From: an uncultured bacterium
Lineage (GTDB): Bacteria > Patescibacteriota > Patescibacteriia > Patescibacteriales > UBA12465
Direction of reading: 5' to 3'
Assembly: GCA_942492765.1 (NCBI GenBank)
Contig: OW818634.1
Coordinates: 281,159-345,158 of the forward strand
Length of the DNA stretch: 64,000 nt
In this document: positions 14,966 to 33,856 of the stretch, piece after piece
Layout of the letters: the number at the start of each line of letters is the position of its first letter
Position numbering within the stretch: the stretch's first letter is position 1
Made by a program: the position numbers and the translations under genes
The notes under the pieces: generated by a model
The model's database searches: none
What the model was told of the DNA's origin: nothing
Seen by the model: the letters and a program-made list of their open reading frames with translations, nothing else

Positions 14966-14991
14966 AAATAAATAAACTTAAAGATAAACTT

Positions 14992-15312: not shown

Positions 15313-15314
15313 AC

Positions 15315-16448
15315 ATGAAAATCGCTTCTATCGTCTGCGCTTTCCCGCCTTATGCCGGCGGTATGGGCAACAGCGCCGATCGAATCAGCCAGATACTGAG
15401 AACCGAATATGAAGTCGTCGACTTCACTCCTTATAATACGAAACCGTGGCTGAAATATGGCCACGGTTCTGTTTTAGGCTCCCTGCTCTGGCGCTTGAGA
15501 TCATTCGATTATATTTACCTCCATTACCCGTATTTCGGCACGGCTGAGATCGTCTGGCTCTTCAAGATCTTCCACAAGAGAACGAAACTTGTGATCCATT
15601 ACCATATGGACGTAAGCGGCCTTAGCCCTTGGGCCAGGATATTAAGCCTTCCCAGCCGCCTGATTCGCGCCTCCCTGCTCCAACAAGCTGACCTTATCGT
15701 CACGGCCAGCCTAGACTATGTGAAGAACAGCGAAATAAAAGATTATTACGCGGCCCATCCCGAAAAATTTCGTGAGATCCCTTTCGCCGTCGACCTGCAG
15801 AGATTCCAGCCGAGCGGACTGAAGGCGCCGGCTGGTAATAGCCTCTTAGCCAAGGCTAAGGAGATCGTGAATTTCGTCAGCGCCCAATTCATAAAAAAGG
15901 ATCGTTTCGACCTGCTCTTTGTCGGCGCGCTCGATGCGGCCCATTATTTCAAAGGCGTGGACGTGCTCTTGCGCGCCGCCGCCGGGCTCGGCGATTGCCA
16001 TTTCGAATTGACGATTGCGGGCGAAGGCGATAAGCGCCAGGAATATGAGGCTTTAGCCGTGCGCCTCAATCTCGACAAGAAAATAAGGTTCGCCGGGAAA
16101 CTGAGCGAGGCCGACCTAGTTCGCGCTTATCAGAAAGCAGATCTCCTGATATTGCCCTCGATTAACGGCAACGAAGCCTTTGGCATCGTCTTGATAGAAG
16201 CTTTAGCTTGCGGCGTGCCAGTTATGGCCTCTGATCTTCCCGGCGTCCGCGGCGTCTTTAATGACGGCGAAGAAGGCTGGCTGATCAAGCCAGGAGACGT
16301 ATCAGACCTCGAAAAGAAATTGAGGCTATTTATGAGCGATAAATCTATATCCGAAAGAATGGCGGCAAAAGCGAGAAGCTTGGCGGAAGCCAAATATGGA
16401 GAAGAGATAGTAGCCGCTAAGCTAAAAGAAATATTCAAAGCGATATGA
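15315..16448 (+). CDS. Glycosyltransferase family 4
   Basis: The track ORF 15093..16448 has an N-terminal extension that overlaps the DUF2304 gene. The in-frame ATG at 15315 (MKIASIVCAFPPYAGGMGN) is the plausible start. The GT4 E-x7-E region is LPSINGNEAFGIVLIEALACGVPVMASD. Confidence 0.85.
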   Translation: MKIASIVCAFPPYAGGMGNSADRISQILRTEYEVVDFTPYNTKPWLKYGHGSVLGSLLWRLRSFDYIYLHYPYFGTAEIVWLFKIFHKRTKLVIHYHMDVSGLSPWARILSLPSRLIRASLLQQADLIVTASLDYVKNSEIKDYYAAHPEKFREIPFAVDLQRFQPSGLKAPAGNSLLAKAKEIVNFVSAQFIKKDRFDLLFVGALDAAHYFKGVDVLLRAAAGLGDCHFELTIAGEGDKRQEYEALAVRLNLDKKIRFAGKLSEADLVRAYQKADLLILPSINGNEAFGIVLIEALACGVPVMASDLPGVRGVFNDGEEGWLIKPGDVSDLEKKLRLFMSDKSISERMAAKARSLAEAKYGEEIVAAKLKEIFKAI

Positions 16449-17530
16449 AGATAGGCTTGATGCACAATCTATACGGGAAATACAGCCGCGGCGGCGCGGA
16501 AACAGCCGTGAAGATGATGGCTGAAGATTTGCGCCGATCCGGGCATGAAGTCTTCTTGATAACTACGCGCCCGGAGAATGATAAGCAGAACTCTGATCAG
16601 AAAGAAAATAAAACATTGAACGGAGAAAAAATATATCAGATAGATTCCGATTTCTATGATCTGGGCAAGCGTTCCCCGCTCTACCGCGCTCTCTGGCAGG
16701 TCAGAAATATCTTCTCGTTCCAGCAAGCGCGCCAGATAAAGGCTATACTGAAATCAGAAAAACCGGATGCAATCATCACTCACAACTTGATGGGCCTAGG
16801 CTTCATGGTTCCTCGCGTCTTGAAGAAGTTGGATATCCGCCACGAACATTTCCTCCATGATATCCAGCTCATCCACCCTTCGGGACTGATGATCTTCGGG
16901 CAAGAACAGAAAATCGACAGCCTGGCCGCTAAGATATACCAAGCGCTGACGCGGACGCTATTCGCTTCTCCGGCTAAAGTCATCTCTCCGTCCGACTGGC
17001 TCCTAGAGATCCATAAGCAGCGCGGCTTCTTCAAGGATTCGGAACAGGAGATCCGCCCATTCGTCTGGCCCGAGACAGAAGCGCCGCGGCCAGCCAAAAT
17101 CGGTTCGGCCAAGAATTTTATCTTCATCGGACAGATCGAGGAACAGAAAGGCATACTCTTCCTTATCAACGCTTTTAAGAAGATAAGCCGGCCGGAGCTA
17201 AGCTTATTCATCGCAGTCCGCAACGGCGGCAAGGATCTGGATAAGGCGCGAGCGGCCGCTAGCGGCGATGCGCGCATCCAGATTTCCGGATTGCTTTCCT
17301 ATGACGAGACTAAAGAGATAATGAACGCCAAAGATTACCTGATCATCCCCTCTTTATGCTATGAGAATTCTCCGACCGTGATCTACGGCGCCCACGCGGC
17401 CGGCCTGTCTGTCATCGCTTCCCGTCTCGGCGGCATTCCGGAATTGATGAAAAAAGGCGACGAACTTTTCACCCCCGGAGACGAGGGCGACCTGATAAAA
17501 AAAATAACGCTAGCGACGAAGACGAAATAG
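16445..17530 (+). CDS. Glycosyltransferase family 4
   Basis: 361 aa with MKIGLMHNLYGKYSRGGAETAV and a C-terminal IPSLCYENSPTVIYGAHAAGLSVIASRLGGIPE. It has an ATGA overlap with the upstream GT4. Confidence 0.8.
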   Translation: MKIGLMHNLYGKYSRGGAETAVKMMAEDLRRSGHEVFLITTRPENDKQNSDQKENKTLNGEKIYQIDSDFYDLGKRSPLYRALWQVRNIFSFQQARQIKAILKSEKPDAIITHNLMGLGFMVPRVLKKLDIRHEHFLHDIQLIHPSGLMIFGQEQKIDSLAAKIYQALTRTLFASPAKVISPSDWLLEIHKQRGFFKDSEQEIRPFVWPETEAPRPAKIGSAKNFIFIGQIEEQKGILFLINAFKKISRPELSLFIAVRNGGKDLDKARAAASGDARIQISGLLSYDETKEIMNAKDYLIIPSLCYENSPTVIYGAHAAGLSVIASRLGGIPELMKKGDELFTPGDEGDLIKKITLATKTK

Positions 17531-17560
17531 AAAAGGCCGGACTGATCCGGCCTTTTATTA
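17531..17560. terminator. Bidirectional intrinsic terminator
   Basis: aaaaggccgg (17531-17540) pairs with ccggcctttt (17547-17556) across a 6-nt loop. It is flanked by A/T tracts and lies between convergent genes. Confidence 0.7.
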
Positions 17561-17579: not shown

Positions 17580-18602
17580 TCAGGCTCCGAAACCCTGCAA
17601 TCTCTTGTTAGCTTCGATATCAAAGATAGTTTTCTTCAGTCCGTTCTCGAGCGTTACGACCGGCATCCAGCCGAGTTCGTTGCGCGCCTGATGGATATCT
17701 GGCAAGACCAGCTCGCTGAGAAACAGCTTATCTTCAGAATAAGCTATCTTAGAGCTAGAGCCGGTCAGAGACAAGATCGTCTTGACCAAGTCAGTTAAAT
17801 TAGTGTCTATGTCCGAACCGATATTGATCGGGCCCGTCAGTTCAGAATTCATGAATTTTCCGATCGCGTCGATAACGTCATCGATATAGCAGAAAGAAGA
17901 AGAGAAAGTCTCATCGCCATTGATAGTGACGTCGACATTATCCAGGGCATTCTTGATGAAATCCGGGATCATCTGATCATCATTCGCTTCCATGCGCGGA
18001 CCATAGACGCGGAAGAGGCGCATGATGCGCGCATCCACGCTATAGAGAGAGCGATAGTTGCTGACCACGGTTTCCGCAAAACGCTTGCCCTCATCATAAG
18101 AACTGCGCTCTGACAGCTGATCGACCGCGCCCAAATCGCTCTCTTTGACTTTCAGTTCGGGATTATCGGCGCGACGCGGACCATAGACGACCGAGGATGA
18201 GAATTGCAAGAGCTTAGAATTATATTTGACGGCCATATCCAGAAGATTCTTGACCACATAGGAATTCGCCAGAATAGTGGCTAAACGATTCTCTAGGAAG
18301 CGGCGCGGCGACATCGGACAAGCCAGATTATATATCTCCTGCAAGCCTTGGAATTCTATCTTGAATTTCTTCAGCTCCGGAAGCGTCTCTAAATCCAAGG
18401 GCTTAGATAAATCATGATTAATAAAAATGAAGTCAGGATTGGCGAGCAGATGATCGATATTGCGCTCGCTGCCGGTGATAAAGCTGTCCACGCAGATGAC
18501 CTTACTGGTCTTAACCAACTCATCGCAGAGGTGAGACCCGATAAAGCCGGCGCCGCCAGCGACGAGGATGTTTTTCTTATCAAAGATGACTTGCTTAGAC
18601 AT
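17580..18602 (-). CDS. UDP-glucuronate decarboxylase (UDP-xylose synthase)-like SDR
   Basis: 340 aa with ILVAGGAGFIGSHLCDELV, VDSFITGSERNIDHL, and the catalytic YDEGKRFAE motif characteristic of the UXS/ArnA-decarboxylase type. Confidence 0.75.
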   Translation of the reverse strand: MSKQVIFDKKNILVAGGAGFIGSHLCDELVKTSKVICVDSFITGSERNIDHLLANPDFIFINHDLSKPLDLETLPELKKFKIEFQGLQEIYNLACPMSPRRFLENRLATILANSYVVKNLLDMAVKYNSKLLQFSSSVVYGPRRADNPELKVKESDLGAVDQLSERSSYDEGKRFAETVVSNYRSLYSVDARIMRLFRVYGPRMEANDDQMIPDFIKNALDNVDVTINGDETFSSSFCYIDDVIDAIGKFMNSELTGPINIGSDIDTNLTDLVKTILSLTGSSSKIAYSEDKLFLSELVLPDIHQARNELGWMPVVTLENGLKKTIFDIEANKRLQGFGA

Positions 18603-18609
18603 ATGATTA

Positions 18610-20640
18610 TTAGTTACTGATCTTTATTATACCAATATTAACGCCGCCGTTCCAGTTTTCCTCCCAAGCGTAGAACGATTCCATTAATTCTCCGCGAGTG
18701 CTGAAGACGCGGACATGGGGTGCGGCTCCCGCCTGAGCGGCCGTAGCTATTTCAGGCAAGCCGTCGTTATTCAAGTCGCCGGCAGACAGGTTCACCCCGC
18801 CTTGCCAATTGCGGCTATAAGCTAAGAACTGGCGCACCAGTGCGCCGCGATTATCAAAAATCTTTATCTGCGGATCACGGCCTTTGCCCGGAGAAACGAT
18901 GATGTTCGCCTTATTATGATCTTTGCGGCCGTTGATATTCGCGACCGCTATCTTCACTCCGCCACGGAATTTCTTTTCATAAGCTAAAAAAGCTCCGATA
19001 ATCTTGCCGTCAGCATGGAAGATCTTAACCATCGGCTCGGAGCCGGCGCCATAAGCGGCGACGATTTCCTGGTCGCCGTTGCCATCAATATCGCCAGCCG
19101 CCAGATTCAGGCCGCCGCGCCAATAGCGGCTGTCGACCAAAAATTGCTTCTTCAATTGGCCGTTGAAATTGAATATTTTGATTTGACCGGTGCCGCGCGC
19201 GGCTTGGGCAACGGCTATCTCCATCTGCTCATCGCCGTCAATATCAATCAAAGCGACGCTCACCCCGCCGCGAAAATACTTGTCATAAGCTAATATCTGC
19301 TTGATCAACCGGCCGCTTTCACTATAAATCATAATCTTCGGTTCGCTGCTCGGCCCCGCGCCGACGATTATTTCTTCTAAGCCGTCGCTGTTGACGTCTC
19401 CGATGGCGATGCTTTCCCCGCCCTTGATATCTAGGGATAATTTATCGGCCAGATCGCCAGTGGCAGCCGTAAGCTTGGACTGCTTGGTCTTGACGGAGCT
19501 CTGCGGCAGAACGACTAGGCGTCCGACGCGGCTATATAATTTCTCTTTAGCCATCTCGACAGCCCGATTGACATTTAAGCGTCCGTTGCCCAGCTTGCCC
19601 TCATAGTCAGGATTTAAACGGCTGATATTATCAGTAGAAGCGAAAAGAATATTAACTATCTCGCGGCGGCTCAATTCCGGATTAGCCTGGGCGATTAAGG
19701 CTAGGGTCGCCGTGACTTGCGGCGCTGCCATGGAAGTTCCCGACCAATAGCCGTCATAGAGCTTATTCGGAAAATCAGCCACGCTGCCCGCAGTCACTGC
19801 GCTGAAGAAGCTGATGCCCGGAGCGACTAAGTCGACACAGCGCGATCCATAGCTGGAAAATTTAGCTTTCTGATCAAGCGCATCGGTCGCGGCTACGCCG
19901 ATGACCATATTCTCGCCGATGAGCTCGCCGTCATAACAAGCCGGATAGATAGGCGTCTTCTCGATATCATAACCGACGCCGTCCGCTTGCTCATTTCCGG
20001 CCGCGGCGACGATCATGATTCCGGCCTTATGCGCCCGGCGTATCGCTTCTTGCATGCCGTCGCTATAATTAAAAGAGACGAAGCTCAGATTTATTATATC
20101 CGCGCCATTAGCGATCGCGTAGTCAATCGCGCGGATGACATTGCTCAATTTTCCCTCTCCTTTATCATTTAGAACTTTTAGAGCCATGATCTGCGCCTGC
20201 CAGGTGATGCCGGCGACACCCTCGCTATTATTGCCGCGCGCGGCGATTATGCCGGCGACCATCGTGCCGTGAGAGACCCCAGCCTCAGTCCAGCCGGCCG
20301 TAAATTTCGGCGATGGGTCTGGGGCGTTATTAACGAAGTCCCAGCCATTCACGTCATCAATGAAGCCATTCCCGTCGTCATCAATATTATTTCCCGGAAT
20401 TTCCCGAAGGTTATTCCAGATATTATTTTTCAAATCGGGATGATTGATCTGTATGCCTGAATCGATTACCGCGATTACCATATCCGGACTGCCGGTAATC
20501 TTATCCCAGGCGCTGTCGGCTTTTATCTTAGATAAATACCATTGATTGCTATAAAAAAAATCGTTCGGCGTAATATTAGCCAAAACAGGCTCTGCCAGGA
20601 ACAGCGAGAGAATAAAAAAAGATGTTATCAGTTTTCTCAT
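18610..20640 (-). CDS. Secreted subtilisin-like (S8) serine peptidase with C-terminal FG-GAP/VCBS-like repeats
   Basis: The catalytic triad contexts are AVIDSGI (Asp), HGTMVAGIIAA (His) and GTSMAAPQV (Ser). The signal peptide is MRKLITSFFILSLFLAEPVLA, and the ATG at 20640 is preferred over the track start 20661. The C-terminal 263 aa form about five 50-55 aa repeats. Confidence 0.85.
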   Translation of the reverse strand: MRKLITSFFILSLFLAEPVLANITPNDFFYSNQWYLSKIKADSAWDKITGSPDMVIAVIDSGIQINHPDLKNNIWNNLREIPGNNIDDDGNGFIDDVNGWDFVNNAPDPSPKFTAGWTEAGVSHGTMVAGIIAARGNNSEGVAGITWQAQIMALKVLNDKGEGKLSNVIRAIDYAIANGADIINLSFVSFNYSDGMQEAIRRAHKAGIMIVAAAGNEQADGVGYDIEKTPIYPACYDGELIGENMVIGVAATDALDQKAKFSSYGSRCVDLVAPGISFFSAVTAGSVADFPNKLYDGYWSGTSMAAPQVTATLALIAQANPELSRREIVNILFASTDNISRLNPDYEGKLGNGRLNVNRAVEMAKEKLYSRVGRLVVLPQSSVKTKQSKLTAATGDLADKLSLDIKGGESIAIGDVNSDGLEEIIVGAGPSSEPKIMIYSESGRLIKQILAYDKYFRGGVSVALIDIDGDEQMEIAVAQAARGTGQIKIFNFNGQLKKQFLVDSRYWRGGLNLAAGDIDGNGDQEIVAAYGAGSEPMVKIFHADGKIIGAFLAYEKKFRGGVKIAVANINGRKDHNKANIIVSPGKGRDPQIKIFDNRGALVRQFLAYSRNWQGGVNLSAGDLNNDGLPEIATAAQAGAAPHVRVFSTRGELMESFYAWEENWNGGVNIGIIKISN
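18613..19401 (-). repeat. Coding tandem repeats (about 5 units of ~150-165 nt) encoding FG-GAP-like blades
   Basis: The peptide pattern recurs five times: GD[VIL][DN]xDGxxEI...P.[IV][KR][IV]F...G.L...F.AY....RGG[VL]. Examples are GDVNSDGLEEI, DIDGDEQMEI, GDIDGNGDQEI and GDLNNDGLPEI. Confidence 0.75.
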
Positions 20641-20675
20641 ATAACACCTTAATACTAACATATCTTAATTATTAT

Positions 20676-21890
20676 TTACAGACTCTTGATAACCTCTAAA
20701 GTCTCTTCGGCAGAGCGGCGCCAACTGAATTTTTTAACCTGTTCCAATCCTTTTACTATCAGGTCTTTTCTCAGATCTTCATCAGACAATATCCGGCCCA
20801 TCGCGGCCGCAATCGCCCGCTTGTCGTTCTGATCGAAATACAGGGCGGCTTCGCCGGCGACTTCTCTGAGCACCGGAATATCAGAAACAGCAGCCGGAAT
20901 GCCGCAAGCCAGGGCTTGCAAGACTGGGATGCCGAAACCTTCGTGCTTAGACGGAAAAATAAAAGCGGCGGCGGCGTTCATGACATAAGGCATGTCCTCT
21001 TCAGCTACCCAGCCCGGCATGATAACCTTGCCATTAAGATTAAATTCTTCAATAGTATATTTTATCTCGTCATACCCGAAGCCGGCATCGCCGATAAGGA
21101 CCAATTTCGCCTCCATATCCGGATGATTCTCTCGCAAGTAGGCGAACGCTTCCACCAGAGCAGATACGTTTTTCTTCTTTTCCAAGCGGCCGATATATAA
21201 GAAAAAAGGCGCCTCAAGAGCATACTTATCCAAAACGGCCTGAGTCTTCTCTGGATTTTCCGGCAAGCGGCGATAAAGATGATCAGGATAACCGTTATGA
21301 ACGACGGAAATCTTCGTCGCTGGAGTCTTGGGATAGAGATTCAGGATGTCCTGCTTGGTAAACTCGGAAACGGCAATGATCTTCTTAGCATGACGCAGGG
21401 CGAACGCGGTCGACCAATAAAGATAATCGACAGAATCGCTGCGGTAGCGGCCTAAGGTCAGAAGCCTGACAAAAAAATTTATCAGCTGGCGCGTTCCGAC
21501 TAAGCTGGTCTTGGCTTTGACTGCCCGATAAAGATTCTGCTCGCGGACAAAAGCGACATCATGGATAGTGTTGAGGGTGCGGCGCGGGCCGAAGAGCGGC
21601 AAAGTATGCGCCGGAATGAATAAAACGTCCGGACGGCGATACAGCATCTCCAGAGTCAAGCGGCCCAGAGTCCAGAAAGAAAAGAAGGGCCACTTCAAGA
21701 GCTTGAAGGAAAAATTCGGGTTATCTTTGACGGCCTCGATCAATTCCGGACGAGCCGGCTGATTGATATAGAGCCAATAAGTATTAGCCTTATCTATCTC
21801 CGCCAGATTCTTGATCAAGTAAAAAGAGTACCATTCGGTACCAGTCTTGTGGAGCAAATTAGCGCGCGAGGCGTCTATTCCGATAATCAT
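20676..21890 (-). CDS. Glycosyltransferase family 4
   Basis: 404 aa with FPSKHEGFGIPVLQALACGIPAAVSD (E-x7-E motif). Confidence 0.85.
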   Translation of the reverse strand: MIIGIDASRANLLHKTGTEWYSFYLIKNLAEIDKANTYWLYINQPARPELIEAVKDNPNFSFKLLKWPFFSFWTLGRLTLEMLYRRPDVLFIPAHTLPLFGPRRTLNTIHDVAFVREQNLYRAVKAKTSLVGTRQLINFFVRLLTLGRYRSDSVDYLYWSTAFALRHAKKIIAVSEFTKQDILNLYPKTPATKISVVHNGYPDHLYRRLPENPEKTQAVLDKYALEAPFFLYIGRLEKKKNVSALVEAFAYLRENHPDMEAKLVLIGDAGFGYDEIKYTIEEFNLNGKVIMPGWVAEEDMPYVMNAAAAFIFPSKHEGFGIPVLQALACGIPAAVSDIPVLREVAGEAALYFDQNDKRAIAAAMGRILSDEDLRKDLIVKGLEQVKKFSWRRSAEETLEVIKSL

Positions 21891-21900
21891 AATCCTCTGA

Positions 21901-22914
21901 TTATTTAGTGGCGAGGATGCTGCGTTTATAAGAATCCAAATTATCTAAAGCGATACCCGTGCCCTTGGCGACGCAAAGCATGGCGTCGTCAGCGACATAA
22001 GCGGAAACACCGGTAGTCCGAGCGATTAATTGATCGATATTGCGGAGCAAGGAGCTGCCACCGGTAAGCACTATGCCCTTATCCATGATATCGGCCGATA
22101 ATTCCGGCGGAGTCTTCTGCAGCACTTTCTTAGCGGCAGCGATTATCGCCTCTAGCTCGTTCTGGATAGCTTCAGTCACATCATCGCTCGAGACAGTCAG
22201 ACTGCGCGGCAGGCCGGTCACGATATCGCGTCCGCGTATCTCCAGATAAAGCTTATCCTCCATATATAAGGCCGAGCCGATATTGATCTTTATTTCTTCA
22301 GCTGTACGCTCGCCGATAGCCAGGTTATATTTCTTGCGAATATATTCCAGGATAGCAGCATCGAACTTATTGCCGCCGACGCGCACAGAAGTCGAAGCGA
22401 CGATTCCGCCCAAAGAAATGACGGCCATTTCCGCGGTTCCGCCGCCGATATCGATAACCATGTGCCCAGTAGCTGAGCCGATGGGTATGTCAGCGCCGAT
22501 AGCCGCCGCCACCGGTTCCTTGATGATATAGGCCGCTTTAGCGCCAGCCGCGATAGTCGCTTCAATGACCGCGCGGCGCTCAGTAGACGAAATGCCCGCC
22601 GGGACGGCGACCATGACTTCCGGACGGAATAAGCGGATGCCCCCTAAGGTCTTATTGATGAAATAGCGTATCATCGCTTCGGTCGCCCGATAATCAGCGA
22701 TGACTCCGTCCTTCAAAGGACGCACGGCCATAATAGTATCCGGGGTGCGGCCGATCATATCCTTAGCCTCGTTGCCGACAGCCAGGATCTTCTTGTCATG
22801 GATAGAGACTGCCACCACGCTCGGCTCATTAATAACAATGCCGCGCTTAGGCAGATGGATTAGAGTATAGGTTGTACCAAGATCGATTCCGATCCTTTTA
22901 ATAAACATACGCAA
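21901..22914 (-). CDS. mreB: Actin-like rod-shape protein MreB (paralog 1, not next to mreCD)
   Basis: 337 aa with IGIDLGTTYTL, VIDIGGGTAEMAVISLGG and VLTGGSSLLRNIDQLI actin-fold motifs. Confidence 0.9.
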   Translation of the reverse strand: MRMFIKRIGIDLGTTYTLIHLPKRGIVINEPSVVAVSIHDKKILAVGNEAKDMIGRTPDTIMAVRPLKDGVIADYRATEAMIRYFINKTLGGIRLFRPEVMVAVPAGISSTERRAVIEATIAAGAKAAYIIKEPVAAAIGADIPIGSATGHMVIDIGGGTAEMAVISLGGIVASTSVRVGGNKFDAAILEYIRKKYNLAIGERTAEEIKINIGSALYMEDKLYLEIRGRDIVTGLPRSLTVSSDDVTEAIQNELEAIIAAAKKVLQKTPPELSADIMDKGIVLTGGSSLLRNIDQLIARTTGVSAYVADDAMLCVAKGTGIALDNLDSYKRSILATK

Positions 22915-22986
22915 AAATATAACACTAATCTATCTTAGTATTTTTGTGAACATTAGTCAAACCGGTCAAAACCGGAAAATGAAGTC

Positions 22987-23430
22987 TTATTCTTCATAAT
23001 CACGATCGACGCTCTTCTCGCTGGCCGCGACTATCCGTTTGACTTTCTCGGCGAATTCAAAAGTATCGAATTCTTCCTTGAAGAAAACATAATCAGCGCC
23101 GAGCTGCAGGCTGCGCTGACGGCTGTCCTCGTCGCTCAGATCGGTAAAGATGAAGATCTGCTTATCATTGAGCTCATCGTCGGACTTCAATTTCTTAATG
23201 ATCTCGAAGCCGTCAACCTTGGGAAGAATGAGATCAAGAATAATATAATCCGGCTCGAAATCCCGAAGCTTATTGAATAATTCTTCCATCTCTTCGTCGC
23301 CAGTCGCGGTTTCCACCTCGAACTCATCAGCGGAAAACTGAGATTCTAGCCCGTAAAGAAGATTAGCGTCGTCTTCGATGATAAAGATTTTCTTGTTTTC
23401 CATATTTTTGATTATTTTAATTTCTTCCAC
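22987..23430 (-). CDS. Stand-alone response regulator receiver domain (CheY-like)
   Basis: Motifs are KIFIIEDD, the phospho-acceptor context DYIILDLILPKVDG, and the conserved Lys region (GADYVFFK). The track start at 23430 is GTG and overlaps the rfbB stop. The ATG at 23403 (MENKKIFIIEDD) is an equally plausible start. Confidence 0.8.
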   Translation of the reverse strand: MEEIKIIKNMENKKIFIIEDDANLLYGLESQFSADEFEVETATGDEEMEELFNKLRDFEPDYIILDLILPKVDGFEIIKKLKSDDELNDKQIFIFTDLSDEDSRQRSLQLGADYVFFKEEFDTFEFAEKVKRIVAASEKSVDRDYEE

Positions 23431-24374
23431 CAGGATTCATTAGCTTTATACCATTCTAGCGTAGCGCGCAAGCCCTCCTCGAAAGATTGGAGCGGCTCCC
23501 AGCCTAATTCCGCCCGCGCTTTGGAAAAATCAATCGCGTATCTCAAATCGTGGCCGAGACGATCGGGCACATATTCGATCATCTCTTCACCGCGACCCAT
23601 CAGGCTAAGTATCAGCTTGGTTATTTCCATGTTAGTCTTCTCGTTGCCGCCTCCTAGGCAATAAGTCTCGCCGATGCGGCCATGTTTAATGATCATATCG
23701 ACGCCGCGGTTATGGTCATCGACATGAATCCAGTCGCGGACATTCGCGCCCGCGCCATAAACCGGAACCTTCTTCCCTTCCATCAGGTTAGTGATAAAGA
23801 GCGGAATCAGCTTTTCTGGATATTGATAAGGTCCGTAATTATTGGAGCAATTAGAAATAGTGATCGGCAGCTTATAAGTATGGTAATAAGCGCGGACCAG
23901 ATGATCCGAACCAGCCTTAGAAGCGCTATAAGGAGAGCGCGGATCATAAGGAGTCTTCTCATTAAATTTCGGCGCGCCGAAATCCAAGGCGCCGAAAACC
24001 TCATCGGTCGAGATATGATGGAAGCGGATATGGCCGTTGTTCTTCGCCGCTTCCAATAAGGTCCGCGTCCCTTCGACATTAGTACGGATAAAGTCAGCGC
24101 TATTCTTGATAGAGCGATCGACGTGGCTCTCGGCCGCAAAATGAACAATGACATCTATTCCCTGCACCAGATCATTAACCAGCGCCGCATCGCAGATATC
24201 GCCTTTGACGAACTTATAGTTAGGATTATTCTCCACATCCTTAAGATTATCCAGATTGCCGGCATAAGTAAGCGCATCCAGATTGATAAGGCTGTCTTCC
24301 GGATATTCCTTCAGCCAATAGCGTATGAAGTTGGAGCCGATGAAGCCGGCGCCGCCGGTAACGAGTAATTTCAT
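23412..24374 (-). CDS. rfbB: dTDP-glucose 4,6-dehydratase (canonical)
   Basis: 320 aa with TGGAGFIGSNF, LDALTYAGNLDNLKD, the canonical HHISTDEVFG, YSASK, VRDWIHVDDH and RLGHDLRYAID. Confidence 0.9.
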   Translation of the reverse strand: MKLLVTGGAGFIGSNFIRYWLKEYPEDSLINLDALTYAGNLDNLKDVENNPNYKFVKGDICDAALVNDLVQGIDVIVHFAAESHVDRSIKNSADFIRTNVEGTRTLLEAAKNNGHIRFHHISTDEVFGALDFGAPKFNEKTPYDPRSPYSASKAGSDHLVRAYYHTYKLPITISNCSNNYGPYQYPEKLIPLFITNLMEGKKVPVYGAGANVRDWIHVDDHNRGVDMIIKHGRIGETYCLGGGNEKTNMEITKLILSLMGRGEEMIEYVPDRLGHDLRYAIDFSKARAELGWEPLQSFEEGLRATLEWYKANESWWKKLK

Positions 24375-24772
24375 ATTTTGGATAATAATTTATTCAAGAT
24401 TTCTTCAGCCTCGCCATATGCATATGGATGCTGCGGCCACTGCACATGGCCATCGCCCGCGTGGCGCGGAATGACATGGAAATGAATATGGGGGACGTTC
24501 TGCCCGGCCACCGGATCATTGTTAGTCGTAACATTATAGCCGAGAACTCCCAGCCTATCTTTCAATAAGCGGCCGATCTTCTTAACTGCTAAGATTATGG
24601 CGCACAAGTCATCTTCGCTCGCTTCTTCGATATTCTGATAATGCTTCTTGCTTAACACCAGGGTATGGCCCGCGTTGACAGGTTTGGCATCCAAAAAAGC
24701 AAAGATGCGATCATCTTCGTAAACCTTGGCGCAAGGAATCTCATTATTGATTATCTGGCAAAAAACGCACAT
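24371..24772 (-). CDS. HIT family (Hint-type) protein
   Basis: 133 aa with CVFCQII at the N-terminus and the histidine triad HIHFHVIPR. It has an ATGA overlap with rfbB. Confidence 0.85.
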   Translation of the reverse strand: MCVFCQIINNEIPCAKVYEDDRIFAFLDAKPVNAGHTLVLSKKHYQNIEEASEDDLCAIILAVKKIGRLLKDRLGVLGYNVTTNNDPVAGQNVPHIHFHVIPRHAGDGHVQWPQHPYAYGEAEEILNKLLSKI

Positions 24773-24773
24773 A

Positions 24774-25226
24774 TTATTTTATCTTATAAGGACTATCCTC
24801 TTTAGCTTCCCATCTGATCTCATCAATTTCTTCCTTCTTACCCTCTCCTTTATACAATTTATCAGGCAAGTTGATGCTCAAGGCCGCGATATCGGAAATG
24901 CATTTATAGCCATGGACGACGCCTGGCGGCACGATGACGAGGGTCGGATTGTCTTCTCCGACTTCAAGCTCTAAGGATTCGCCCTCGGTCTTCGAATCGC
25001 CGCGACGATCCCAAAGATAAAGGCGGAAAGCGCCCGGACCGAGGAACACGAAGCAGTCGCTTTGATGGACGTGTTCATGCGGGCCGCGGATGATTCCCGG
25101 CTTAGTCAGGCTGACATAGGCCATGGACATATCGAAAGCTAGCTCGTCGCGGCGGAATATCTCTGCCAGCCAGCCGCGGTTATCTTCGTATTTCTCTATC
25201 TTCTTGATGATGACTCCATTGATCAT
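24774..25226 (-). CDS. dTDP-4-dehydrorhamnose 3,5-epimerase-like cupin (short RmlC family)
   Basis: 150 aa with YEDNRGWLAEIFR and IIRGPHEH...DCFVFLGPGAFRLYLWD, which resemble the RmlC/WxcM cupin fold. It is shorter than classical RmlC. Confidence 0.65.
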   Translation of the reverse strand: MINGVIIKKIEKYEDNRGWLAEIFRRDELAFDMSMAYVSLTKPGIIRGPHEHVHQSDCFVFLGPGAFRLYLWDRRGDSKTEGESLELEVGEDNPTLVIVPPGVVHGYKCISDIAALSINLPDKLYKGEGKKEEIDEIRWEAKEDSPYKIK

Positions 25227-25227
25227 A

Positions 25228-26208
25228 TTATTTTATCTTAATTAAGCTAGTCTGAGCGCCGATATGGGCGACCTTGGCGGCCGCATTCTGCAAACTCAGA
25301 TGCAAGGCCTTATCGATATCGCCTTTGAACAGCGTCCAAGCCGCGGCAAATGAGGAATTAAAGATATCGCCGACGCCAGTAGTATCGACGCGCTTCTCTT
25401 CCTTGATGATATCATGCTGGATTATCTTCTGACCGTCAAAGACTATCACGCCGTCGCTGCCCATAGTGATTACGACGATCTTCGCGCCGAAGCTATGGAT
25501 GATCTTAATCAGACTCTCCGTATTATTCAAGACTATATGATCGGTATTCTTATAGCCTTCAGTATGCAAGACCAACGCCAGCGCCTCATCTTTATTGCAA
25601 GCGAGGACGGTAGTTTTCTTCAAATATGCCTTGATCTTATCAGCTCCGCCCAAAAGCTGGGTCATGCCCGGATTCCAGAAGACATTAGGTCCCTGCGGAG
25701 AGACGACTGAAAATATCTTTCTCAGATTCCCTGGCCAATCTCCAGCCAAGGAAGCTATATAGATGCCCTTAGTCTTCTTCAGATAAGAAATATCTTTCTC
25801 ATCTATCGCCAAAATCTTATTGGCGCCGCGCTGAGCGAAGATGATGCGCTCTCCGTTCGGAGCGATCAGGATAAACGATGACCCGCTCTCTTCGTTCTTG
25901 ATTCTTTTGATCATGCGGGTGTCGACATAGCGCGCCCTCAGGTTTTCAACGATCAAGCGGCCATTCCTATCGCTGCCGACCGGCGCCAGGCAGGCGGTCC
26001 GAAAGCCAAAATTAGCTAAACAAGCCGCGGCATTAGCTGCGCCGCCGCCGTAAGAATAATAAAACTTATCGACTTTTATCTTGGCGCCAGATTCAAACGC
26101 TAAAAGTTTCTGGCGCAGAATGTCGTTTCCATCTTTCATCAGCACCCCTTGGTCAGTGAAAAAAGAGATGTCGCGAGTCGTTCCGCCGATAGTTATGAAA
26201 TCATACAT
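25228..26208 (-). CDS. PfkB family carbohydrate kinase
   Basis: The probable start is the ATG at 26208 (MYDFITIGGTTRD); the track ORF extends to 26280. PfkB motifs are GGGAANAA and DTTGVGDIFNSSFAAA near the C-terminus. Confidence 0.8.
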   Translation of the reverse strand: MYDFITIGGTTRDISFFTDQGVLMKDGNDILRQKLLAFESGAKIKVDKFYYSYGGGAANAAACLANFGFRTACLAPVGSDRNGRLIVENLRARYVDTRMIKRIKNEESGSSFILIAPNGERIIFAQRGANKILAIDEKDISYLKKTKGIYIASLAGDWPGNLRKIFSVVSPQGPNVFWNPGMTQLLGGADKIKAYLKKTTVLACNKDEALALVLHTEGYKNTDHIVLNNTESLIKIIHSFGAKIVVITMGSDGVIVFDGQKIIQHDIIKEEKRVDTTGVGDIFNSSFAAAWTLFKGDIDKALHLSLQNAAAKVAHIGAQTSLIKIK

Positions 26209-26284
26209 ATATGTGGACAAGAATATATTATCGAAATAAATTACTATGGTAATAATAACATGAGAAACCCCTTTATCCAAAGGC

Positions 26285-26818
26285 TCAAGCCTTCTCTAAG
26301 AAGAACGGCTTGAAGCGGCGCGTCAAGGCGCCAGCCAGGCTGAACATTAATAAGCCGGCTGATCCGCTCCAGAGCATCTGATAAAAGAGATTAGACCAGA
26401 AAATTCCATTCCACAAGAAGAAAGCTCCAATAGAAGCGCCGGACAGATAGAACAGGAAGGCGGCAGCGATATCGTAAGCAGCCGTCGCCAAGAGCAGCAG
26501 CAACAAGAAAGAATACAAAGAACGGTTAGTCAGCCGGGTTTCCAATATCCAATTGGCAAAAATTACGGACAGGAAGAAAAGCAAGAGATAGAGGCCGAAA
26601 AAATAAAAAGAAAAAAGATCGAGCCAAAAGCCTAAGATCAAGGCGGCATACAACGAAGACTTGAATCCGAAAAAGAACAGGGTGAACATCAAGGCGATCA
26701 TCGCTAGGTTTATCTGGCTGAAAACTGAAGGCAGCGAAAAGATAAAAGAAAACTGGACGATGGCGACGCCTGAAAGCAATAAGATCAAGAATGCTATCTG
26801 CCAGATTTTTTTTATCAT
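26285..26818 (-). CDS. mreD: Rod shape-determining protein MreD (by position and topology)
   Basis: 177-aa polytopic hydrophobic protein immediately downstream of mreC. The sequence itself is poorly diagnostic. Confidence 0.55.
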   Translation of the reverse strand: MIKKIWQIAFLILLLSGVAIVQFSFIFSLPSVFSQINLAMIALMFTLFFFGFKSSLYAALILGFWLDLFSFYFFGLYLLLFFLSVIFANWILETRLTNRSLYSFLLLLLLATAAYDIAAAFLFYLSGASIGAFFLWNGIFWSNLFYQMLWSGSAGLLMFSLAGALTRRFKPFFLEKA

Positions 26819-26830
26819 AACCGGAATATA

Positions 26831-27634
26831 TTAAGGTATAAGGACAGACACTATAGTCAGATTATCAAGGTCGACGAGAGGCTCGATGATCGCCTCCTGC
26901 CAAACCTCGTTGCTTTCATTGAAAACCTGGGTGACGCGGCCGATAACCAGACCGCGGGCGATATGTTCGCCCAAACCCGAGGTGATGACGATGTCTCCCG
27001 GCGCTATCTTCTCTAGCTGCGGAATATAATTCATCCTGATAGTCAGGCCGAGATCGCCATCGGTTATGCCCTGCGTCTTATCGGAATTCTGGATAGCGGC
27101 GGCTAGCTGGCAATTAGGATTAGTCGTCAAGCATATCTTAGCCGTCGCGTCTTTCGTTTCTAAGACTTTACCGACGATCAAGCCGTCTTCGCTGACTACC
27201 GCTAAGCCAGCGACTAATCCGTCCTTGGCACCGCGATTGATAACTAAGCCCAGGCTATCTTCAGCGGCCGCTTCTTTGGCGATGACGCTCGCGACTACAG
27301 TCCGTGAATTACTATTGCTAGCGAATTTCAAGGCCTCGCGCAGCTTGCGATTCTCTTCCTCTATCTCTAAGCTGCGGGAATTAGCCACAGTCAGGACTAA
27401 CACTTCTTTAGCTAAACGATCAGCTCGCGCGGCTGGATCTTCCGGATTATTATTGGCGTCATAAGCCGTCTTGATATTCGTGCCGGCATTATAAAAACGG
27501 CTGGCGATAGGCTTGACCAGATAAACCAGAGAATTCTCCAACGGCCGCAAGAATCCCGATATATGCAAAAAAAACAGCGCGGCGGCTATTATCAGGCAAG
27601 GGACGACCGGATTGTTTTTCTTGATTCTAACCAT
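26831..27634 (-). CDS. mreC: Rod shape-determining protein MreC
   Basis: 267 aa with an N-terminal TM, a coiled-coil segment (LEIEEENRKLREAL) and a beta-rich C-terminal domain (GDIVITSGLGEHIARGLVIGRV). It follows mreB. Confidence 0.8.
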   Translation of the reverse strand: MVRIKKNNPVVPCLIIAAALFFLHISGFLRPLENSLVYLVKPIASRFYNAGTNIKTAYDANNNPEDPAARADRLAKEVLVLTVANSRSLEIEEENRKLREALKFASNSNSRTVVASVIAKEAAAEDSLGLVINRGAKDGLVAGLAVVSEDGLIVGKVLETKDATAKICLTTNPNCQLAAAIQNSDKTQGITDGDLGLTIRMNYIPQLEKIAPGDIVITSGLGEHIARGLVIGRVTQVFNESNEVWQEAIIEPLVDLDNLTIVSVLIP

Positions 27635-27635
27635 A

Positions 27636-28676
27636 TTAATCAGTATTCGAAGGCAGAACGACTTTCTCTAATAATTCCTTATCAGTTAATAAGATGCCGG
27701 TGCCGCGCACGACGCAAGTCAATGGATCATCGGAAATCTTGACAGGAATCTTGGTCGCCAGAGAGATAGCCTTGTCCAAGCCGCGCAGCAGGGCGCCGCC
27801 GCCGGAAAGATACAGGCCGCGCTCATAAATGTCAGAAACTAATTCCGGAGGAGTCGTCTCTAAGATAGTCTTGATGTTATCGATGATCTTGACGACGGTG
27901 CGATTGATCGCTTCCCTGATCTGCTTGTCGCTGACCATGAGAGCCTTAGGCAAGCCGGTAACGAGATCGCGGCCGCGCACTTCTATCTCGGTCGGAGCCT
28001 CCAGGGGGACAGCCGAACCGATAGCGATCTTGATCGCTTCCGCCAGCTGCTCGCCGATGAGAATATTGAATTCTTCGCGGATATACTCGATGATGTTGTT
28101 ATCAAATTCGTTTCCGGCCGCTTTCAGAGATTTCCAGGTGACGACGCCGCCGAGCGAGATGACGGCGATTTCCGTCGTGCCGCCGCCGATATCTACGACC
28201 ATGGTCGCGGTCGCTTCAGTTACGGGCAAGCGGGCGCCGATAGCAGCGGCCATCGCTTCCTCGATCAGATAGACCTTGCGGGCGCCGGCAGACTTGGCAG
28301 CATCCTCGACCGCCTTCTTCTCTACCTCGGTCAGGTCGAGCGGAATGCCGATGACGACGCGCGGGCGGGAGATGAGAGTAAAATTCTCAGTATGGACTTT
28401 ATTAATAAAATATTTGAGCATCTTCTCAGTCACTTCAAAATCAGAAATGATCCCTTCGACGAGCGGCTTAATCGCTTCGATATGGCCCGGAGTCTTGCCG
28501 ACCATCTTCTTGGCAGCCTCGCCGACCTCCAGGATTTCATTCGTACGCTTATTGATAGCGACAACGCTAGGCTCGTTGATTACTAGCCCCTTATCAACAA
28601 CATAAACCAGGGTATTCTTGGTTCCCAAGTCGATTCCTAAGTCATGGCTGAATTTTCCGAGCAGATTATTGAACAT
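27636..28676 (-). CDS. mreB: Actin-like rod-shape protein MreB (paralog 2, in mreBCD)
   Basis: 346 aa with LGIDLGTKNTLVYV, VVDIGGGTTEIAVISLGG and YLSGGGALLRGLDKAI. Confidence 0.9.
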   Translation of the reverse strand: MFNNLLGKFSHDLGIDLGTKNTLVYVVDKGLVINEPSVVAINKRTNEILEVGEAAKKMVGKTPGHIEAIKPLVEGIISDFEVTEKMLKYFINKVHTENFTLISRPRVVIGIPLDLTEVEKKAVEDAAKSAGARKVYLIEEAMAAAIGARLPVTEATATMVVDIGGGTTEIAVISLGGVVTWKSLKAAGNEFDNNIIEYIREEFNILIGEQLAEAIKIAIGSAVPLEAPTEIEVRGRDLVTGLPKALMVSDKQIREAINRTVVKIIDNIKTILETTPPELVSDIYERGLYLSGGGALLRGLDKAISLATKIPVKISDDPLTCVVRGTGILLTDKELLEKVVLPSNTD

Positions 28677-28718: not shown

Positions 28719-29945
28719 CTATCTCAAACTAGAAGATAAATCTTTTATCTTCACTAATACGCCCTTATCCTCAGAGCGGCGTTTCATCTCGACGCTATCT
28801 TCGCTCAAAGTCTTCTTGCTGACGACGACGCGATACGGGCAGCCGATCAGATCGGCATCGGCGAATTTTTCTCCGGCCGACGCTTCGCGGTCGTCGAATA
28901 AGACTTCGAAACCGGCCTTAACCAATTCCTCATAGATACGCGCCGCCGCCTCATTCTCATTCAAGGATATCAGATGAAGCTTGAAGGGCGCGATATTCTC
29001 CGGCCAGATGATTCCTTTATCATCATGAAAAGTCTCAACGATGGTTCCCATGATGCGGCTCGGCCCCATGCCGTAGCAGCCCATTACCGGAGTATTCTCC
29101 TGGCCGGCGCTATCCTTATAAGAGATATTGAAAGGCGCGGAAAATTTCGTGCTGAGCTTGAAGATATTGCCGACCTCGATCGCTTTCTTTTCAACCAGCT
29201 TCTTATTACCGCAAATCGGGCAGGAATCCTGCTCGGCTATTATCTCCTTATTGACGGCGACATGGCATTTCTCACAGATATAGATCAGGTCTTCTCCGGC
29301 CTCGGCTAAAGTCTGAAACTCATGAGAGTATTTAGAAAAAGTTCCGCCGGAAGCGTAAGTCAGATAAGTGATCTCGCCCAGGCCGAGGCGATCATAAGTT
29401 TTCTTATAGGCCCCAGTCGCTTTCTCATAATAAGCGTCGAGATCGGCTTGATCGGTGTGGAAGGAATACAAGTCTTTCATCAAGAATTCACGGCCACGCA
29501 ATAATCCGGCCTTAGCTCTCTTCTCGTTGCGAAACTTCGTCTGGATTTGATAAACGCCAAAAGGCAGATCTTTATAAGAAGCGATAAATTTCTTAGCCAG
29601 AGGCGAGACGATTTCCTCATGCGTCGCTCCGAGAGCGTATTCCTTATTGTCGCCGCCAGTCAAACGGAATAGGACATCGAAATGAGCCCAGCGTCCGGAA
29701 GCTTCGAGGTTCTCTTTCGGGATCAAAGACGTCATTAATATTTCCTGACCGCCGATGGAGTCCATCTCCTCGCGGATGACGCGGCAGATCTTATCAAGCA
29801 CGCGCTTGCCTAAAGGCAGATAAGAATAGACTCCGGCCGCGACTTTATCGATAAAACCAGCGCGAATTAGCGCCTGAGCATTATAACTCGGTTCATCTTT
29901 TGGTAATTCTTTGACAGTCCTGGTAAAAAGTTGCGATTGGCGCAT
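28719..29945 (-). CDS. proS: Proline--tRNA ligase, minimal bacterial-type lacking the INS editing domain
   Basis: 408 aa with MRQSQLFTRTVKELPKDEPSYNAQALIRAGFI, motif 2 FRNEKRAKAGLLRGREFLMKDLYSF, motif 3 GCYGMGPSR, and a C-terminal anticodon-binding domain. Only about 25 aa containing CEKC...CPIC occupy the position of the INS insertion. Confidence 0.85.
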   Translation of the reverse strand: MRQSQLFTRTVKELPKDEPSYNAQALIRAGFIDKVAAGVYSYLPLGKRVLDKICRVIREEMDSIGGQEILMTSLIPKENLEASGRWAHFDVLFRLTGGDNKEYALGATHEEIVSPLAKKFIASYKDLPFGVYQIQTKFRNEKRAKAGLLRGREFLMKDLYSFHTDQADLDAYYEKATGAYKKTYDRLGLGEITYLTYASGGTFSKYSHEFQTLAEAGEDLIYICEKCHVAVNKEIIAEQDSCPICGNKKLVEKKAIEVGNIFKLSTKFSAPFNISYKDSAGQENTPVMGCYGMGPSRIMGTIVETFHDDKGIIWPENIAPFKLHLISLNENEAAARIYEELVKAGFEVLFDDREASAGEKFADADLIGCPYRVVVSKKTLSEDSVEMKRRSEDKGVLVKIKDLSSSLR

Positions 29946-33851: not shown

Positions 33852-33856
33852 AATTA

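Follow-up and report, generated by a model that had tools for sequence, protein, structure and literature searches.

We analysed a 64-kb stretch of DNA (the window; contig OW818634.1, positions 281,159 to 345,158) from an uncultured groundwater bacterium, a relative of the Falkowbacteria (Patescibacteria/Candidate Phyla Radiation, CPR), and focus here on a gene array at 17580–28676 that encodes two MreB proteins. All positions given are those of the window. The array comprises twelve genes, all on the minus strand, in the 5′ to 3′ order mreB2, mreC, mreD, pfkB, cupin, HIT, rfbB, receiver, mreB1, GT4, S8 and UXS-like. Its durable unit, and the sole feature of the run that is widely kept among relatives, is mreB1 followed by a gene for a family 4 glycosyltransferase (GT4).

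Layout of the array

The open reading frame (ORF) map and profile searches place every gene at the coordinates and on the strand given in an initial annotation of this DNA. The family that it named for each gene was borne out by the profile searches, in the case of MreD by way of orthologues, whereas its count of thirteen genes has to be lowered to twelve, with eleven junctions. From the UXS-like gene upwards these junctions measure 7, 14 or 35, 10, 72 or 78, –19, –4, 1, 1, 76, 12 and 1 nucleotides (nt), in agreement with the 4- and 19-nt overlaps, the gaps of at most 14 nt and the two larger gaps of 76 and 72 nt described at first. The run had been taken to end at 28676, but minus-strand genes continue through proS, a methyltransferase gene, ruvA and a U32 peptidase gene to 33117, giving sixteen genes.

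The minus strand carries 44 of the 52 larger genes of the window, and same-strand gaps have a median of 10 nt throughout. In simulations with this strand bias, a run of 16 or more co-directional genes arises with a probability of 0.41. The cumulative GC skew declines steadily along the window, which fits a single replichore. The co-directionality and tight packing of the array are within chance for this genome; the feature of the region that is above chance is the gene order kept in relatives.

The two MreB paralogues and their immediate partners

The paralogue linked to MreC and MreD, mreB2 (27636–28676, minus strand), matches PF06723 with 462 bits. It is followed after 1 nt by mreC (26831–27634, minus strand; PF04085, 112.7 bits) and, after another 12 nt, by a divergent mreD (26285–26818, minus strand), which encodes a polytopic membrane protein in the expected position. 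Against PF04093 the window protein scores only 12 bits (cut-off 24), although it is co-linear with the profile over positions 5–148 of 158. We regard it as a probable MreD because 12 of 18 orthologues match PF04093, with a best E-value of 2.1e-6. The three genes are adjacent in canonical order, and both this order and the gaps of 1 and 12 nt resemble the mreB-mreC-mreD operons of E. coli, B. subtilis and Caulobacter. In contrast to those operons, no recognisable promoter separates the window genes from the proS gene ahead of them, sugar-nucleotide genes stand downstream instead of pbpA-rodA, and MreD by itself falls below the Pfam threshold. At the N-terminus, MreB2 and its relatives are extended (by MFNNLLGKFSH in the window), and we take this extension to resemble the amphipathic helix of proteobacterial MreB.

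Directly upstream lies proS (28719–29945, minus strand), coding for a short prolyl-tRNA synthetase (ProRS) with tRNA-synt_2b and HGTP_anticodon domains. The proS–mreB2 gap is 42 nt in the window and has a median of 12 nt in relatives, and no conserved promoter motif was found in it among the relatives compared. From their spacing and sequence, proS and mreB2 probably share a transcript. The two genes are neighbours in other Parcubacteria too.

The second paralogue, mreB1 (21901–22908, minus strand), matches PF06723 with 447 bits (NF010539, 456 versus 293; TIGR00904, 451 versus 366). Its likely start is the ATG at 22908, and relatives are called at 335 amino acids. MreB1 and MreB2 are 47% identical, close to the half of residues estimated by eye at the outset. 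Both keep the actin-fold motifs that had been noted, namely DLGT (phosphate-1), DIGGGT (phosphate-2) and the GG adenosine motif, and in residue-level alignments both are co-linear end to end with the solved MreBs 7zpt_M/8azg_M, T. maritima 1jce and 4cze_A. The N-terminus of MreB1 is short, and an LF pair aligns to the loop of T. maritima MreB, where the LF loop has a reported role in membrane insertion.

The GT4 gene (20676–21890, minus strand; PF00534, 122 bits) begins 10 nt after mreB1 and has a GAGG before its ATG. Its best solved relative is GlgM with 75 bits, and the nearest enzyme types are GlgM, MshA and PimA.

Ten longer MreB-containing cluster representatives carried Ser/Thr kinase, zinc ribbon or unannotated extensions, and none a receiver fusion. 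Among the best MreB1 matches is the cluster representative P0121 (1010 amino acids), in which an N-terminal Ser/Thr protein kinase domain is joined to two MreB domains; it is either a natural kinase–MreB fusion or a gene-calling artefact.

The sugar-nucleotide, protease and UXS-like genes

Five genes separate the two MreB loci. The first encodes a PfkB-family sugar kinase (25228–26208, minus strand; PF00294, 155 bits; likely start ATG 26208) that reached no NCBIfam equivalog, scoring 116 bits for ribokinase against a cut-off of 300. The second product is a cupin of 150 amino acids (24774–25226, minus strand; PF00908, 52.7 bits, cut-off 27), which we name RmlC-like because it remains below the cut-off of the RmlC equivalog TIGR01221 (35.4 against 155.75 bits). 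A HIT protein of the Hint type follows (24371–24772, minus strand; PF01230, 93.5 bits), its gene overlapping by 4 nt with rfbB (23412–24374, minus strand), which encodes a dTDP-glucose 4,6-dehydratase (TIGR01181, 489.7 bits, cut-off 365.1).

The fifth gene, overlapping rfbB by 19 nt, codes for a stand-alone receiver of 147 amino acids (22987–23430, minus strand; PF00072, 60.8 bits, cut-off 30.2). On inspection of the sequence its phospho-acceptor set is complete, with the acidic pair (DD), the Asp (in ILDL), the Thr and the Lys. Profile searches detected neither an output domain nor a DNA-binding domain in it. Its description as an orphan holds for the window, since none of the 52 ORFs in the 64 kb matches HisKA or HATPase_c. 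The receiver belongs to the sugar-nucleotide unit as its terminal gene.

The two last genes of the array encode a protease and a sugar-nucleotide enzyme. The protease, a secreted subtilase of family S8, carries an FG-GAP propeller at its C-terminus (18610–20640, minus strand; PF00082, 181 bits; PF01839, 68 bits). Its likely start is the ATG at 20640, which opens a putative signal peptide (MRKLITSFF...) with a hydrophobic segment at residues 10–30, and the D, H and S triad motifs can be seen as DSGI, HGT and SGTSMA. The UXS-like gene (17580–18602, minus strand) codes for a short-chain dehydrogenase/reductase (SDR) that resembles UDP-glucuronate decarboxylases. Among solved-structure sequences, human UXS1 chains reach 200–203 bits and the next enzyme class 84 bits; the catalytic YxxxK lies within a YDEGK motif.

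The sugar genes of the array are comparable to the dTDP-rhamnose (rml) and UDP-xylose (UXS) pathways in that RfbB exceeds its equivalog cut-off, a cupin of the RmlC fold is adjacent and the terminal SDR is nearest to UDP-glucuronate decarboxylases. They differ in that rmlA, rmlD and a UDP-glucose dehydrogenase gene were not found in the array, that the cupin is under the RmlC equivalog cut-off and that genes for a PfkB kinase and a HIT protein are interspersed among them.

Conservation among Falkowbacteria

Scanning one genome per species gave 80 loci with an MreB1 orthologue, all from Patescibacteria and mostly labelled Falkowbacteria. MreB1 is 83–100% identical over these species. A tblastn synteny table splits them into two groups. 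In a full-array group of about 40 species the order is U32-ruvA-proS-mreB2-mreC-mreD-pfkB-cupin-HIT-rfbB-receiver-mreB1-GT4-S8-UXS, followed by two convergent GT4 genes, with neighbour proteins as low as 27–41% identity. In the other group mreB1 is preceded by genes for a receiver, an HlyD-like membrane fusion protein (MFP), a MacB ATPase, two MacB permeases and a DUF4012 protein, and the genes from mreB1 onwards run co-directionally as mreB1-GT4-S8-UXS-GT2-DUF2304-x-GT4-GT4. The MFP–MacB–DUF4012 genes do not occur in the window. DUF4012 is enriched in the CPR and occurs in a Bifidobacterium capsule locus.

The GT4 gene adjoins mreB1 in 74 of 77 Falkowbacteria species. Adjacency is likewise frequent from GT4 to S8 (56/68 loci) and from S8 to the UXS-like gene (51/55), while 40 of 78 loci have a receiver gene directly upstream of mreB1 and 27 of 53 testable ones have mreB2 in the 7 kb ahead of it. 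No S8 protease gene was detected beside MreB1-type genes outside the Falkowbacteria-type loci sampled. The whole twelve-gene order is limited to one Falkowbacteria subclade: it was found neither in the other subclade nor in the other Parcubacteria sampled. Conservation in related genomes, named at the outset as a check on the array, thus extends for the complete order to the roughly 40 species of that subclade. What stands of the linkage first proposed between the second MreB and glycan genes is the mreB1–GT4 pair.

Promoter-like elements within the array

Upstream regions were aligned over the approximately 40 full-array species, and motif matches were compared with backgrounds of 11.6% for TGnTAnn[AT]T and 1.3% per searched interval for TTGAC-N17-19-TAnnnT. 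Upstream of mreB1 lies a predicted sigma-70-type promoter, TTGACT-17 nt-TAAGAT (22932–22960, minus strand), whose –10 element ends 23 nt before the ATG. Its pattern recurs in 37 of 41 relatives, whereas the flanking intergenic sequence varies. The 76-nt gap ahead of pfkB contains the extended –10 element TGTTATTAT (26252–26260, minus strand), within a promoter-tool match at 26279–26252 that includes the TG; the motif is present in 34 of 37 relatives. Upstream of the S8 gene the extended –10 element TGTTAGTAT (20652–20660, minus strand) ends 11 nt before the likely start codon and has counterparts in 37 of 38 relatives. Many of these relatives have in-frame stops after the element, which argues that it is non-coding. 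A perfect extended –10 element, TGGTATAAT (18626–18634, minus strand), precedes the UXS-like gene from inside the 3′ end of the protease gene, and here the motif recurs in 25 of 39 relatives.

None of the remaining junctions has a conserved promoter motif in these species, and in the mreB1–GT4 gap the two motifs occur in 0 and 2 of 40 relatives. The candidate promoters at 20638–20660, 18602–18634 and 26206–26260 consist mostly of an extended –10 element (TGnTAnnAT) without a –35 element. The closeness of some of these –10 elements to the start codon, 11 nt at the S8 gene, suggests that mRNAs of these Falkowbacteria have very short leaders or almost none.

At the far end of the array, between the convergent UXS-like and GT4b genes, lies a strong predicted bidirectional intrinsic terminator (17531–17556) with an 11-pair stem (6 G-C) and a T-run. 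Of 39 relatives, 24 have a terminator-like site after their UXS-like gene (background, 4.9%). Since the perfect-stem scan gives false positives in coding sequence (such as 16 of 35 after HIT, which fall in the GxGxxG codons of rfbB), only intergenic matches were used. Between the genes of the array, the window sequence yielded no prediction of a strong terminator.

On these elements, the array is best read as (proS-)mreB2CD, pfkB-cupin-HIT-rfbB-receiver, mreB1-GT4, S8 and UXS-like, and not as one operon. The initial annotation had instead suggested coordinated control of wall glycopolymer synthesis and cell shape, which amounts to a single co-regulated array, effectively one operon in which a single-domain response regulator governs mreBCD, nucleotide-sugar synthesis, the second MreB and glycan enzymes. 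All twelve genes are indeed co-directional with mostly very short junctions, the entire order recurs in some 40 species and a strong internal terminator is lacking in the window, yet we regard this explanation as highly improbable. Conserved promoter-like elements occupy four of the eleven internal junctions, hairpins follow mreB1 in many relatives and the run is not bounded at 28676. Moreover, mreB2CD and the sugar-nucleotide module lie near mreB1 in only 27 of 53 Falkowbacteria loci and are missing there in other Parcubacteria. Nor does the receiver suit the part of controller in such an array. It is the terminal, translationally coupled gene of the pfkB–rfbB unit and, with neither a DNA-binding nor another output domain, cannot be taken for the regulator of all twelve genes. 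Its counterpart in the other Falkowbacteria group is located 6–8 kb away, at the head of the MFP–MacB cluster.

A probable ancestral neighbourhood with two MreB paralogues

Contexts outside the Falkowbacteria were taken from nine look-ups and an 80-locus metagenome sample. The MreB1 homologue search itself filled with sequences at least 94% identical, and breadth came from more distant representatives and the metagenome scan. MreBs of Moranbacteria, Pacebacteria and other Parcubacteria are 61–83% identical to MreB1 and 45–50% identical to MreB2. Orthologues of MreB2 (58–67% identical) also occur in other Parcubacteria, where their genes follow proS or rseP or adjoin mreC. By these identities MreB1 is the common MreB of Parcubacteria and MreB2 a second, old paralogue. 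In a library of 50%-identity clusters, about 65 representatives resemble MreB1 more closely than MreB2 does. This library, which carries no taxonomy and whose clusters mask intermediates, gives no date for the duplication and shows only that many clusters are nearer to MreB1. In some Parcubacteria gatC-gatA, and not mreC, stands after the MreB2-type gene (L089:14472–15827, L092:11445–12871), so the MreB2 paralogue is not always tied to mreC and mreD.

Two clades of CPR MreBs, both present in some Parcubacteria and Microgenomates genomes and suggested to have different roles, have been described by Takahashi, Fujiwara and Miyata (bioRxiv 10.1101/2020.05.13.095042). MreB1 and MreB2 fit that split. 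The part of that preprint drawn on here is a protein phylogeny without gene context and, in this part, it reports neither the association of one clade with mreC/mreD and the other with murA/GT4 nor an ancestral co-location.

A common layout in Parcubacteria consists of a ribosomal-protein/rpoA block, a divergent PEGA-domain gene, murA, mreB1, GT4, GT4, holB, (X), frr, rseP, proS, mreB2 and mreC. This order suggests that both MreB paralogues lay in one ancestral neighbourhood, within about 8 kb of each other. The first GT4 of the layout is the orthologue of the window GT4, with 31–36% identity over the full length and 150–225 bits versus less than 56 for other GT4s. The orthologous gene follows an MreB1-type gene in five sampled lineages (L085–L088, L090), including Moranbacteria and Pacebacteria. 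A GT4 gene is found in this position in 31 of 51 testable metagenome loci outside the Falkowbacteria, and 26 of 55 loci have murA immediately before the MreB1-type gene. In Microgenomates the slot after the MreB1-like gene is taken by a transferase of the WecG/TagA family that is not orthologous to the GT4.

The piece of the common layout that is missing beside the array is found elsewhere in the window, at 47029–50884 on the minus strand, where Pfam matches identify holB (49892–50884), a BNR-repeat gene (48775–49887), frr (48199–48753) and rseP (47029–48189). In other Parcubacteria this holB-X-frr-rseP block sits between mreB1–GT4 and proS–mreB2. The split of the ancestral block in the window points to a reshuffle behind the Falkowbacteria order, in which mreB1–GT4 and proS–mreB2CD each remained intact.

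A divergent PEGA-domain gene just upstream of the MreB1-type gene, or of murA–mreB1, was seen in both Parcubacteria and Microgenomates (L081–L085, L088–L090; for example L085:6396–7874). It is absent from the Falkowbacteria loci. The PEGA-domain protein may be another conserved envelope partner.

Functional coupling or inherited order

Three points favour a functional coupling of MreB1 to the GT4 and to glycan synthesis: the pair came through rearrangements to either side of it, no promoter motif separates its genes, and envelope glycan genes recur in the slot, among them the non-orthologous WecG-family gene. Even so, we hold this coupling only tentatively and somewhat short of even confidence.

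Another account would be inherited order without coupling. Here the Falkowbacteria would have kept a conservative Parcubacteria backbone, shuffled and packed on the leading strand, in which mreB1 and GT4 are neighbours by descent only. We consider this an appreciable possibility, although not the leading one. Unrelated housekeeping pairs provide a control within the same metagenome sample, in which holB–frr and frr–rseP are each kept in 17 of 19 loci and proS–mreB2 in 5 of 5, compared with 31 of 51 for mreB1 and a glycosyltransferase gene. As such pairs are kept at least as well, adjacency alone is no proof of selection or functional coupling. The genome-wide strand bias (44/52), the 10-nt median gap and a run length that simulations reach or exceed with a probability of 0.41 agree with inherited order, as do the internal promoters and hairpins and the many lineages without a GT4 gene after mreB1. 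Conversely, the ancestral block is broken on both sides of mreB1–GT4 in Falkowbacteria and the pair is still together in 74 of 77 species. A non-orthologous WecG/TagA-family transferase occupies the same position in Microgenomates, and the immediate neighbours are repeatedly envelope genes (murA, the PEGA-domain gene, GT4s, DUF4012, GT2s). The missing promoter motif between mreB1 and GT4 likewise speaks against neighbourhood by descent only.

Beyond the control pairs, several observations weigh against the coupling of MreB1 to a dedicated glycosyltransferase. Around 40% of the loci outside the Falkowbacteria have no GT4 gene after mreB1. The GT4 of the window reaches no curated functional family, its best match being TIGR04047 with 129 bits against a cut-off of 260, and the ten longer MreB-containing cluster representatives include no MreB–glycosyltransferase fusion. 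Furthermore, the mreB1 stop codon is immediately followed by a G+C-rich hairpin with a T-run in at least 17 of 41 relatives, compared with a background of 4.9%, which implies that mreB1 may be largely monocistronic in these species; in the window itself, where the mreB1–GT4 gap is only 10 nt, this hairpin is absent. Finally, the promoters and terminators on which the division into units relies are consensus matches backed by conservation, that is, sequence evidence only.

A third reading places MreB1 in another process, such as division, polarity or pilus formation and attachment in ultra-small episymbionts, and gives the GT4 an unrelated role, for example in glycolipid or storage glycan synthesis. 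This would accommodate the fact that MreB1 is linked to neither mreC nor mreD in any context sampled, as well as its extreme conservation of 83–100% across Falkowbacteria species. The GT4 is nearest to GlgM-, MshA- and PimA-type enzymes without a specific assignment, and type IV pilus-type ATPase and pilin genes lie near some loci. There is no positive evidence for any one of these processes, though. Both paralogues keep the MreB nucleotide-binding motifs and align fully with canonical wall-associated MreBs, and the recurrent neighbours of mreB1 are murA and glycan genes. We therefore judge a role in another process to be improbable, though less so than a single co-regulated array.

An inverted glycan block beyond the terminator

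Downstream of the array, four plus-strand genes encode a PpgS-like family 2 glycosyltransferase (GT2; 14303–14965), a DUF2304 protein (14992–15312), GT4c (15315–16448) and GT4b (16445–17530). The GT2 matches the PpgS family NF058614 with 157.6 bits and does not reach its cut-off of 370, and the DUF2304 protein is identified by orthology to an L047 protein that matches PF10066. In the other Falkowbacteria group, a GT2 gene, a DUF2304 gene and two GT4 genes run co-directionally after the UXS-like gene. The four genes at 14303–17530 represent the remainder of this glycan cluster, inverted in the window, and the cluster therefore reaches past 17580 and across the terminator at 17531–17556.

We also sought a specific function for GT4, GT4b, GT4c and the second GT4 of other lineages among NCBIfam families and PDB sequences, and discarded each candidate. 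The matches were mixed and below threshold, and included MSMEG_0565, GlgA-like, MshA, TuaC and GlgM entries.

In mycobacteria, Rv3631 (PpgS) is paired with a DUF2304 protein, and polyprenyl-phospho-sugar donors serve the extracytoplasmic decoration of arabinogalactan. The window resembles this system, in which PpgS has a small membrane partner, in that PpgS is the best curated match of its GT2 and a DUF2304 gene stands next to it. Lipid-linked sugar donors for use outside the membrane are likewise suggested for the Falkowbacteria cluster. The score of the window GT2, in contrast, is far under the equivalog cut-off of 370. In the related locus L045 (14523–16607), a GT2 domain is fused to a PMT_2 (GT-C) domain in a gene directly after the S8/FG-GAP gene. 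By its domain composition this fusion points to extracytoplasmic glycosylation from a polyprenyl-phosphate sugar.

Further features of the window

The region upstream of mreB2 varies between relatives. In about one third of the full-array relatives, the protein encoded in the proS slot is only 22–25% identical to the ProRS of the window (loci L005, L006, L011, L015, L016, L021, L024, L026, L029, L033 and L040), and these loci seem, from such low identities, to hold another type of class II synthetase. Between ruvA and proS the window has a gene for a THUMP-like/Methyltransf_15 methyltransferase (30025–31224), which, in the comparison of 80 related species, turned up only here and in the closest relative, L001. 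In the remaining relatives ruvA and proS are directly adjacent, and the methyltransferase gene looks like a recent insertion. Two plus-strand ORFs of 177 and 224 amino acids interrupt the minus-strand genes at 33258–34615. Both lack Pfam matches, and the N-terminus of one resembles a signal peptide.

The window contains a second polysaccharide locus, of classical type, at 53185–63812. It encodes a GT4, two GT2s, a Wzx-type flippase and two methyltransferases, together with a WbaP-like phosphoglycosyl transferase (Bac_transf) on the plus strand. This brings the glycan clusters in these 64 kb of the genome to at least two. At the opposite end of the window, the G+C content drops to 0.34–0.38 at 2001–6000, compared with about 0.48 elsewhere. 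This stretch carries genes for a B12-binding radical SAM protein (3450–4943) and an SDR epimerase/dehydratase (4970–5986), adjoins murB and mraY-ftsW-murG-murC, and may be a horizontally acquired island. Scans of the whole window for tRNA and tmRNA genes found none, nor did any Rfam family reach its gathering score.

Discussion

The explanation that we favour as a whole, with confidence slightly above even, combines juxtaposed envelope units with a platform of MreB1 and glycan synthesis. Its parts differ in strength. Whereas we are quite confident of the structural and evolutionary description, with separate units in a reshuffled Parcubacteria neighbourhood, the functional part carries the lower confidence stated above. 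The region would represent a lineage-specific juxtaposition of at least four separately promoted envelope transcription units in a compact, strand-biased genome, and this juxtaposition would have arisen by rearrangement of an old Parcubacteria neighbourhood that already contained two MreB paralogues. The first unit, (proS-)mreB2-mreC-mreD, would encode the classical elongation scaffold, with an MreB2 that carries the extension resembling an amphipathic helix. The second, pfkB-cupin-HIT-rfbB-receiver, would be a nucleotide-sugar module of the 6-deoxyhexose type with its own extended –10 element and a phosphorylatable receiver as the last gene. The third would be mreB1-GT4 behind the conserved TTGACT-17-TAAGAT promoter, and the fourth would comprise the S8/FG-GAP and UXS-like genes, each with its own extended –10 element, closed by the strong terminator.

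We propose that MreB2, MreC and MreD place the insertion of peptidoglycan. MreB1, which lacks the N-terminal helix and has the hydrophobic loop, may form a second membrane-bound filament system, and its gene would be co-transcribed with that of a peripheral GT-B glycosyltransferase. On this MreB1 platform a secondary envelope glycan could be started, be it a wall glycopolymer, a glycolipid or the glycan of a glycoprotein. The adjacent GT4s might then elaborate the glycan, with pentose or keto-sugars supplied by the UXS-like enzyme and polyprenyl-phosphate-sugar donors by GT2/DUF2304.

The best functional analogy for the mreB1–GT4 and the Microgenomates MreB–WecG/TagA pairings is the MreB/Mbl/MreBH system of B. 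subtilis. There too, several paralogues are present per cell, and the gene of one of them goes together with mreC and mreD. Contacts of the filaments with glycosyltransferases and transferases of wall glycopolymers, and with the LCP proteins TagT and TagU, have been reported (PMC6126333, PMC7831098). The MreB proteins of B. subtilis interact with TagA, B, F, G, H, O, T and U (PMC6126333). Whereas the link in B. subtilis exists at the protein level between products of genes that are not adjacent, the link described here is known from gene pairing alone. In addition, the CPR paralogues fall in clades of their own and are not orthologues of Mbl or MreBH.

The initial annotation had called the linkage of the cytoskeleton to glycan synthesis unusual, an assessment that we share in part. 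Multiple MreB paralogues per cell, contacts of MreB with glycopolymer enzymes and two clades of CPR MreBs are already known, and neighbouring housekeeping genes are equally syntenic. In the literature on MreB in Patescibacteria and Falkowbacteria envelopes, we found only statements of presence or absence and the two-clade phylogeny. What appears to be new is the gene-context split, in which one clade goes with mreC/mreD and the other with murA/GT4, together with the ancestral co-location of the paralogues and the elaboration of the cluster in Falkowbacteria.

Extending this reading to the whole lineage, we hypothesise that Parcubacteria run two actin-like cytoskeletons, an idea that is doubtful at present. 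One, MreB2 with MreC and MreD, would serve peptidoglycan, while the other, an MreB1 independent of MreC and MreD, would be co-transcribed with a dedicated GT4 and recruit it physically, so that a surface glycan or glycolipid is made along the MreB1 filaments. The WecG/TagA-family enzyme would be the Microgenomates counterpart of the GT4, and in Falkowbacteria the module would have been enlarged by the S8/FG-GAP protease, the UXS-like enzyme and the polyprenyl-phosphate-sugar branch. If so, MreB1 would be the first MreB paralogue with a glycosyltransferase, rather than peptidoglycan synthases, as its main client.

The CPR/Patescibacteria are a large and almost uncultured group, whose shape, envelope and host attachment have been inferred nearly entirely from genomes. 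In genomes as compact and strand-biased as these, co-directional arrays and even deep synteny are weak evidence for operons or function unless control pairs are compared. If the proposed coupling is true, it would give the second CPR MreB clade a concrete and testable role and provide a small gene pair for heterologous tests. It would also carry the idea, known from Bacillus, of an MreB with tasks beyond peptidoglycan over to a distant radiation.

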